Below, piece by piece: positions 11,810 to 12,386 of a DNA stretch of 39,994 nucleotides. A model generated the notes under the pieces. That model made no database searches, was not told the DNA's origin, and saw only the letters and a list, made by a program, of their open reading frames with translations. A program made the translations under genes and the position numbers. Every line of letters starts with the position of its first letter. Position 1 is the first letter of the stretch. The DNA is from a virus (taxonomy: Duplodnaviria > Heunggongvirae > Uroviricota > Caudoviricetes), in IMG/VR virus record IMGVR_UViG_2703718828_000004, positions 1-39,994 of that record. One strand, given 5' to 3'.

Positions 11810-11982
11810 GGCGACAGCGACGAAGTTTCACCGACATCATCTGCGAAAACTGCAAATACCTTCCAACGAAACGCTCCAGAAATAAACGCAAGCCAATCCC
11901 AAAAGAATCTGACGTAAAAACCTTCAATTACACGGCTCACCTGTGGGATATCCGGTGGCTAAGACATCGTGCGAGGAAATGA
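11806..11982 (+). CDS. ninE: NinE (58 aa)
   Basis: [58 protein letters not shown] is near-identical to lambda NinE. Confidence 0.85.
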
Positions 11983-12386
11983 CAATGCTTTTAATTCAAC
12001 CTGGATTTGGCCTTAGCATCAAAAAAGGGCACATGTTTGGCGAGAAAGAGTCTCAACGAAAAATGGTGTCTATCCAGTTGCCATTTATCAGTATTTGTTG
12101 GCTAAACAGGGAGGCAACAAATTATTGGTATACATGCGCCAGAGCAGCATTTAACGACCCTGACTGGTTTGTGGAAAACCACCACGCAGTTCGTCAGGCA
12201 AAGAGAAAGGCCAATACGACATACATGAAGGCGTATCGAAAAGCATGGAAAGAACACCGCGATCGATACCAACAAGACATGGAAAAACTTGAATCAGAAA
12301 ACATGGAATTAAGACGAAAGCTTGGTGAAGCAAAACGAGACATTGATGCTTACAAGCGACTTTTTAATGGTGAAATCCATGCTTAG
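11978..12386 (+). CDS. Hypothetical protein with C-terminal coiled coil (about 135 aa)
   Basis: ORF between ninE and ninF; ATG overlaps the ninE stop; C-terminal heptad-like [31 protein letters not shown]. Confidence 0.45.

Follow-up and report, generated by a model that had tools for sequence, protein, structure and literature searches.

What separates ninE from ninF in this lambdoid phage genome, and what might the product of the intervening gene do? In lambda, NinE and NinF overlap directly, and the premise from which an earlier note on this DNA set out, that the two are close neighbours there, is therefore correct. In the window (the whole 39,994-nt stretch analysed, IMG/VR record IMGVR_UViG_2703718828_000004), they stand apart, with an open reading frame (ORF) of 135 codons, counted from 11979 to the TAG stop at 12384–12386, between them. 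This confirms the roughly 135-aa ORF described in the earlier note, which had placed its beginning at 11978, one base off.

A gene packed between ninE and ninF

The gene order in this part of the window is P (DnaB-like)–tR2-like terminator–NinB–Dam–NinE–ORF–NinF–Roi (Rha/KilAC)–YbcO–RusA–NinH–Q–pR'/tR', and the features that frame the ORF and its operon are the following.

10578..10601, + strand: tR2-like intrinsic terminator (terminator scan; equivalent annotated in HK620 and HK75), the upstream limit of the nin region
11806..11982, + strand: ninE, the upstream neighbour (Pfam NinE, E 4.2e-43, full length; aligned with ninE of lambda, HK620, HK75, and P22)
11979/11985–12386, + strand: the ORF, a member of the phrog_1511 family, between ninE and ninF and overlapping both
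11985..12386, + strand: coding sequence from the second ATG, 133 aa plus TAG
12379..12555, + strand: ninF, the downstream neighbour (Pfam NinF, E 1.8e-12; phrog_672, E 1e-37; alignment)
14597–14626, + strand: pR'-like promoter (11/12 match), just after Q
14667–14687, + strand: tR'-like terminator, the downstream limit of the delayed-early operon (pR'/tR' equivalents annotated in HK629 and HK75)

Like other genes of lambdoid nin regions, the ORF lies between the replication genes and tR2 on one side and Q on the other, on the same strand, and with no internal promoter or terminator; a scan for both within or beside 11979–12386 found none, the nearest sites being at 10578, 12970, and 14597. Tight ATGA packing and the non-essentiality of nin genes have been documented for the nin region (PMC8022706), and the ORF is packed in the same way at both ends. 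An in-frame ATG at 11979 forms an ATGA overlap with the ninE stop codon (TGA, 11980–11982), and the ninF ATG at 12379 overlaps the 3' end and stop of the ORF by 8 nt (ATGCTTAG). The proposal that the start of the ORF overlaps the ninE stop thus holds for this first ATG, but the likely start is a second ATG at 11985. This one is preferred because it lies 7 nt downstream of the Shine-Dalgarno sequence GAGGA (11973–11977), from which the first ATG is separated by only 1 nt, because the phrog_1511 profile begins at the same position, and because it is the start in 38 of 40 family members, including members outside any ninE context, which begin M-[LI]-[LI]-I. Use of the upstream start would add Met-Thr to a product that, in its 133-aa form, has a computed mass of ~16.0 kDa and a pI of 9.6.

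It is clear that the ORF is a genuine, intact gene under purifying selection. In comparisons with two Salmonella-phage homologues (SI8 and SE1), dN/dS is ~0.13 (pS 0.43–0.50, pN 0.08–0.10; Fisher p ~1e-12 to 1e-14), and third codon positions hold 38/61 and 44/72 of the differences. All 80 close copies recovered from IMG/VR are intact, the remaining five frames of the interval carry 4–8 stops, and homologues can be followed to a Flyfo siphovirus (66% identity) and to ORF53 of Yersinia phage PY54 (45%). Among phage records, only H-19B, an early sequence in which the interval lacks annotation, and AU5Stx1, with an 83-aa truncation, are disrupted (frameshifted or truncated), and neither strand of the ORF region matched Rfam at E ≤ 1. 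The earlier note had named a missing coding signal, such as frameshifts in relatives, as grounds for giving up the gene, and what is found is the opposite. That there is no gene here at all, and the ORF has arisen by chance in a spacer between genes or is left over from something else, is a reading to which the H-19B and AU5Stx1 records lend some colour, but it is refuted by the selection analysis, runs against the intact copies, the retention across genera, the full-length PHROG match, and the confident helix prediction described below, and has practically no chance of being right.

By its position, the ORF would share the pR transcript of the nin genes, made after N antitermination, and its translation would be coupled to that of ninE and ninF. 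The gene is inferred to be dispensable for the phage, as lambda, HK620, HK75, and P22 are viable without it and AU5Stx1 with a truncated copy. The closest phage to this part of the window is HK629, with 96.6% identity over 87% of positions 9000–16000. Two further ORFs in the same operon neighbourhood deserve mention in their own right. Between the tR2-like terminator and ninB lies a strongly hydrophobic ORF of 68 aa (10625-10831, + strand) with two membrane-helix-like stretches, which is a candidate small membrane protein at the site of ren/ninA; HK75 encodes a 68-aa 'hypothetical' protein in the matching slot. An extra gene stands at the start of the late operon, immediately after pR'/tR', as a 170-aa ORF (14814-15326, + strand) in the position of HK629 gp62, which is annotated as an HNH endonuclease.

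The ninE–ninF slot

The earlier note regarded the ORF as an insertion in the nin region and suggested a comparison with related prophages. Alignment of the DNA of the ninE–ninF interval from the window, HK620, HK75, lambda, and P22, together with the records of the phages that carry the ORF, gives the following picture.

Slot empty: lambda, HK620, HK75
Slot with NinX: P22
Slot with the phrog_1511 ORF: the window, HK629, HK630, mEpX2
11973..11987, + strand: left junction ('linker') GAGGAAATGACAATG, comprising GAGGA, the first ATG, the ninE stop, and the second ATG (alignment)
12379..12415, + strand: right junction ('linker') ATGCTTAGCCCATCCCAATCCCTTCAATACCAGAAAG, with the ninF start overlapping the ORF stop (alignment)

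The left junction is the same in P22, where it stands before ninX. The right junction has a stretch common to the window and P22, where it follows ninX (ATGCTTAGCCCATC[C/A]CAATCCCTTCAATACCAGAAAG); this stretch is absent from the empty-slot phages and takes in the cassette-specific 5' end of ninF. Between the shared junctions, the sequences of the window and P22 are unrelated. The base composition of the ORF is deviant as well (GC 41.8% and GC3 40.3%, versus 47–54% and 48–60% in its neighbours). In the 80 close IMG/VR loci, the ORF always lies between ninE and ninF, and Dam, Roi, YbcO–RusA versus NinG, NinI, and the type of Q assort independently. On the evidence of these alignments, the slot is an exchangeable one with at least three states, of which the ORF is one allele and the unrelated ninX of P22 another. 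The word insertion therefore stands relative to lambda and is refined to one allele of an exchangeable slot. Such a polymorphism is classic lambdoid mosaicism, and homologous recombination at the common junctions would carry the cassette from phage to phage. Taken together, that the ORF is a real gene and an exchangeable cassette of the nin slot is almost certain.

Lambdoid morons are extra genes that carry their own promoter and terminator and are expressed from the prophage, as described in the HK97 and HK022 genome literature. The ORF resembles them in that only some relatives carry it and in its deviant base composition, but no promoter or terminator flanks it, and overlaps of start and stop codons tie it into the operon. 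Lacking such signals of its own, it is a cassette internal to the operon and not an autonomous moron.

Two observations bear on the anatomy of the slot. The 5' end of ninF exists in two alternatives, a 14-residue form that accompanies a filled slot (the window and P22) and the form (V/M)IDPNRSYEQES that accompanies an empty one (lambda, HK620, and HK75), which places the module boundary inside ninF and not at its start codon. In addition, 8 of the 80 IMG/VR loci (within L015–L094) have an extra cassette of ~1 kb in the same slot, between ninE and the ORF, and the same cassette is found in AU5Stx1 (L014, 198-1132), where it consists of a 22-aa ORF and an Ant antirepressor. The ninE–ninF slot can thus hold stacked cassettes.

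The shared slot raises the question of whether the ORF is simply a diverged form of a known Nin protein, above all of P22 NinX (PF10765, Phage_P22_NinX / DUF2591). The two occupy the same position between the same junctions (left GAGGAAATGACAATG and right ATGCTTAGCCCATC…), they are of similar size (112 aa for NinX and 133 aa for the ORF product), and NinX is likewise a small non-essential nin protein with no assigned function. However, BLASTP gave no alignment between them at E ≤ 100, PF10765 matches P22 NinX at 4e-31 and has no match in the ORF, and hhalign of the family profile against NinX returned a probability of 0.3%; moreover, the window protein is built from a β/α domain and a long zipper helix, and shares no sequence or profile similarity with NinX. 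BLASTP, Pfam, and hhalign likewise detected no homology of the ORF to NinY or Ren. Descent from NinX is therefore very improbable, and homology to a known Nin protein, which the earlier note had held would undo its claim, is effectively refuted. The ORF and NinX are positional analogues rather than homologues.

Distribution and genomic contexts of the family

The ORF matches phrog_1511 over its whole length (E 1.2e-84, residues 1–133 on profile positions 1–133 of 133), and this family, labelled 'unknown function', was the sole family match in the profile search that the earlier note had suggested. All 40 of the aligned members match phrog_1511 and 35 of them match phrog_8749, which bears the same label. 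The protein is 98.5% identical to HK629 gp55 (YP_007111829, annotated as hypothetical), from which it differs at two residues, and 95–98.5% identical to the copies in E. coli phages, with the 98.5% figure holding for the HK630 and mEpX2 genes too and near-identical versions in many Stx phages. HK629 gp55, the HK630 and mEpX2 proteins, H0039 of VT1-Sakai, an 'uncharacterised protein' of CP-933V, and ORF53 of PY54 are all members of the same phrog_1511 family, and the E. coli and Salmonella lambdoid members occupy the same ninE–ninF position as in the window, with no difference of substance. No model in Pfam, NCBIfam, or PADLOC rose above threshold for the ORF, the sub-threshold matches being coiled-coil noise only (CagS, UPF0242, CENP-F, LmuB, GerR, and others), and every database copy is named 'hypothetical', all of which bears out the description of the product as unrecognised. 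The gene itself is already known, since near-identical copies are catalogued as hypothetical in annotated phages and in PHROGs. Because it has been so catalogued in dozens of phages, it is best regarded as an ordinary though uncharacterised gene. A search of the literature on nin genes, on HK629, HK630, and mEpX2, and on phage bZIP proteins found no functional study.

In phage records, tblastn located the ORF in 58, NinE in 426, and NinF in 219. Its DNA is present in 388 of 5426 complete E. coli genomes (~7%), in up to four copies per genome. An exhaustive profile search of 1.84 billion representative proteins returned 50 clusters only, ~30 of them remote members that are full-length (123–147 aa), show about 20–30% identity, and have the same architecture; single remote proteins used as queries against IMG/VR returned essentially no loci. 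The protein database also holds several truncated forms of 77–121 aa and three proteins (P0079, P0129, and P0089) in which about half of the ORF is fused to CII-, NinB-, or other domains. These fusions are probably recombinant, frameshifted, or mis-called prophage remnants.

Outside the ninE–ninF slot, the family was found in the following surroundings, with neighbours given in gene order.

L012: NinB … family member – NinG
L011: methyltransferase-like DUF4942 … family member … RecA-dependent nuclease – RusA
L098: repressor – Cro – Q – RdgC – exonuclease … family member – N6/N4 methyltransferase
PY54: exonuclease – Lar-like – ORF53 … methyltransferase

All of the contexts examined outside the slot are phage early DNA-metabolism modules. 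A conserved partner gene was sought across the family contexts and none was found, NinF following the ORF only in enterobacterial lambdoids. A DNA methyltransferase gene is found no more than two genes away from the family member in five phage contexts that are independent of one another (window 11255-11809; L008 1983-2507; L009 4625-5257; L011 84-1682; L098 5591-6781); such a neighbour is absent in HK629, SE1, and L012, and the association, drawn from context counts, is weak. In PY54 (L009), the gene directly upstream of ORF53 (ORF52, 3567-4007), annotated as hypothetical, matches the Lar restriction-alleviation family (PF14354, E 8e-7).

Architecture and possible roles of the protein

An AlphaFold model built from an alignment of 24 sequences (mean pLDDT 78.5) divides the protein into three parts.

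11985..12182, + strand, residues 1–66: N-terminal α/β domain, with β1–β4 (2–40), α1 (42–57), and α2
12183..12266, + strand, residues 67–94: basic helix segment, with the conserved V69-R70-x-A72-K73-[KR]74-[KR]75-A76
12267..12365, + strand, residues 95–127: leucine-zipper-like heptads, with d positions Y95, L102, L109, A116, and Y123 and a positions M99, N106, L113, I120, and F127

The N-terminal domain is predicted to consist of strands at residues 2–6, 11–16, 26–31, and 35–40, a helix at 42–57, and a short helix at 59–65, the last of which (α2) holds a near-invariant D58-P-x-W61-[FL]-[IV]-x-N65 motif. A separate model of residues 1–70 gave the same domain (pLDDT 79, pTM 0.58), and neither structure comparison nor PDB sequence searches with the full and N-domain profiles matched it to a known fold or solved structure. 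The rest of the protein is predicted as a single helix, residues 67–129, with pLDDT >90 over roughly 90–120, in the zipper. This, together with the clean a/d heptad pattern across the family (a at 92/99/106/113/120 and d at 95/102/109/116/123), bears out the C-terminal coiled coil that had been proposed from the sequence, structure prediction having been one of the checks put forward with it. The stretch V69–A76 is the most conserved sequence of the family, and residues 59–94 contain 10 Lys/Arg against 4 Asp/Glu (pI 10.4). Of the 24 close members, 19 have asparagine at a position 106; among the 30 remote ones, 13 have it at a position 113. K73 and I120 lie the same distance apart in 34 of 40 members, and five members depart from this by 4 residues, although alignment of a low-complexity helix of this kind is unreliable.

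Work on the GCN4 coiled coil has established that an asparagine at a core a position favours parallel, in-register dimers. We accordingly favour a model in which the basic product would form a parallel homodimer through its C-terminal zipper, and would thereby present two conserved basic helix segments (V-R-x-A-K-[KR]-[KR]-A) at a fixed distance from the zipper, along with two of the small α/β N-terminal domains. The paired basic helices would then bind nucleic acid, probably DNA, and the protein, which the phage could do without, would modulate DNA transactions at an early stage of lytic growth, as many of its nin neighbours do (NinB/Orf, RusA/NinG, Dam, NinH, and Roi). The parts of this model differ in strength. 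The dimeric zipper is probable on the structural prediction, although homodimerisation is not guaranteed, because the g/e' charge pairs of the window zipper include two attractive and two repulsive ones. Binding of nucleic acid is a tentative proposal, and a rather unlikely one as yet. The conservation of R70, K73, K/R74, and K/R75 speaks for it, as do the contexts with NinB, NinG, RusA, a RecA-dependent nuclease, RdgC, exonucleases, and methyltransferases; on the other hand, about a quarter of the remote members are near-neutral over residues 66–94. As a whole, the account of a cassette gene encoding a dimeric nucleic-acid-binding accessory factor is the best explanation that we can offer, plausible but somewhat short of probable.

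Basic coiled-coil proteins commonly bind other proteins or membranes too, and the strongest competing account is that the zipper dimerises the product while the N-terminal domain, possibly with the basic patch, inhibits or redirects a protein of the host or of a rival phage, for instance in anti-defence, host takeover, or a superinfection-related function. Patchy presence and absence, an exchangeable slot, and atypical GC are all typical of accessory or counter-defence genes, the N-terminal domain is conserved and has no match to a known fold, and several independent contexts have a Lar-like gene or a DNA methyltransferase gene (anti-restriction) close by. Set against this, the protein matches no PADLOC model or annotated anti-defence family, it has no conserved partner gene, and its most conserved sequence is a basic helix rather than a surface loop. 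We regard this account as possible, with a chance similar to that of nucleic-acid binding itself. A coiled-coil protein aimed at the cell envelope, or at the division or nucleoid-organisation machinery in the manner of GpsB-, ZapB-, YabA-, or Kil-like interference, is a good deal less likely. Weak coiled-coil matches to GpsB, YabA, and MreC models and the very hydrophobic N-terminal strands of remote members would fit such a role, but all of these matches are non-significant and limited to the heptad region, no hydrophobic helix of transmembrane length is present, and AlphaFold makes the hydrophobic stretches β-strands.

The nucleic-acid-binding model that we favour invites comparison with the eukaryotic bZIP proteins (C/EBP and GCN4; PF00170), which likewise have an uninterrupted helix that is basic in its N-terminal part and continues as a heptad zipper; in the ORF family, as in bZIP proteins, the zipper is contiguous with the basic helix and has an asparagine at a core a position. 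HMMER aligned the window protein with the basic region and zipper of C/EBPα without gaps and in the canonical phase, albeit in a non-significant match, such that the N-x7-R signature is matched by N77 and R85, the leucines at +25 and +32 by L102 and L109, and the a-position asparagine at +29 by N106. PDB chains of C/EBP (E 0.4–3) and Fos likewise recur at non-significant scores. An alternative equation of N65-H-H-A-V-R with N-N-I-A-V-R of C/EBP was rejected, as HMMER places N77 on the bZIP asparagine and the N65 register is 2 residues out of phase with the zipper.

Membership in the bZIP families (PF00170 / PF07716) must nevertheless be rejected. The scores lie below the gathering cutoffs (bZIP_1, 12.2 bits against 27.6, E 0.2; bZIP_2, 10.2 bits against 22.3), and the signature residues are not conserved, with asparagine at 77 in 2 of 24 close and 2 of 40 wide members and arginine at 85 in 7 of 24 and 7 of 40. 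N77 and R85 occur in the E. coli subclade alone, R70 is preceded by acidic or hydrophobic residues, and just 1 of 40 members matches bZIP_1 even at E ≤ 1, all of which leaves membership unsupported. Those residues before R70 pack on the N-terminal domain in the AlphaFold model, unlike the free arm of a bZIP protein, and their character means that half of the bZIP basic region is missing. The basic segment of the family is thus short and follows a folded domain, the base-contacting asparagine and arginine are not kept, and the family is found only in phages of Enterobacterales and their relatives. The reading of the protein as a genuine bZIP factor that regulates the transcription of phage or host genes in a sequence-specific way, as the gapless C/EBPα alignment might be taken to suggest, is accordingly improbable, marginally more so than a role at the envelope or in division, given scores under every threshold and a signature found only in one subclade. 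A protein working like a basic-helix zipper is possible. The bolder version, in which the family would be a phage functional analogue of eukaryotic bZIP proteins, a parallel zipper dimer gripping DNA through its basic helices and carrying an α/β N-terminal domain with no match to a known fold, is doubtful, though less so than a bZIP regulator proper.

The locus itself is textbook lambdoid mosaicism, of little weight as it stands and of modest value as a pointer. It points to a family that is present in ~7% of complete E. coli genomes, including many O157:H7 Stx prophages, and that is under purifying selection and has no assigned function. Should the product turn out to bind DNA much as bZIP proteins do, or to inhibit some host factor, the lambda early programme and the biology of Stx phages would gain a new small regulator or effector. 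If the family were indeed a phage analogue of bZIP proteins, its DNA-binding architecture would be one not described before in bacterial viruses, and it would act early in lytic growth on the DNA of the phage or of its host.
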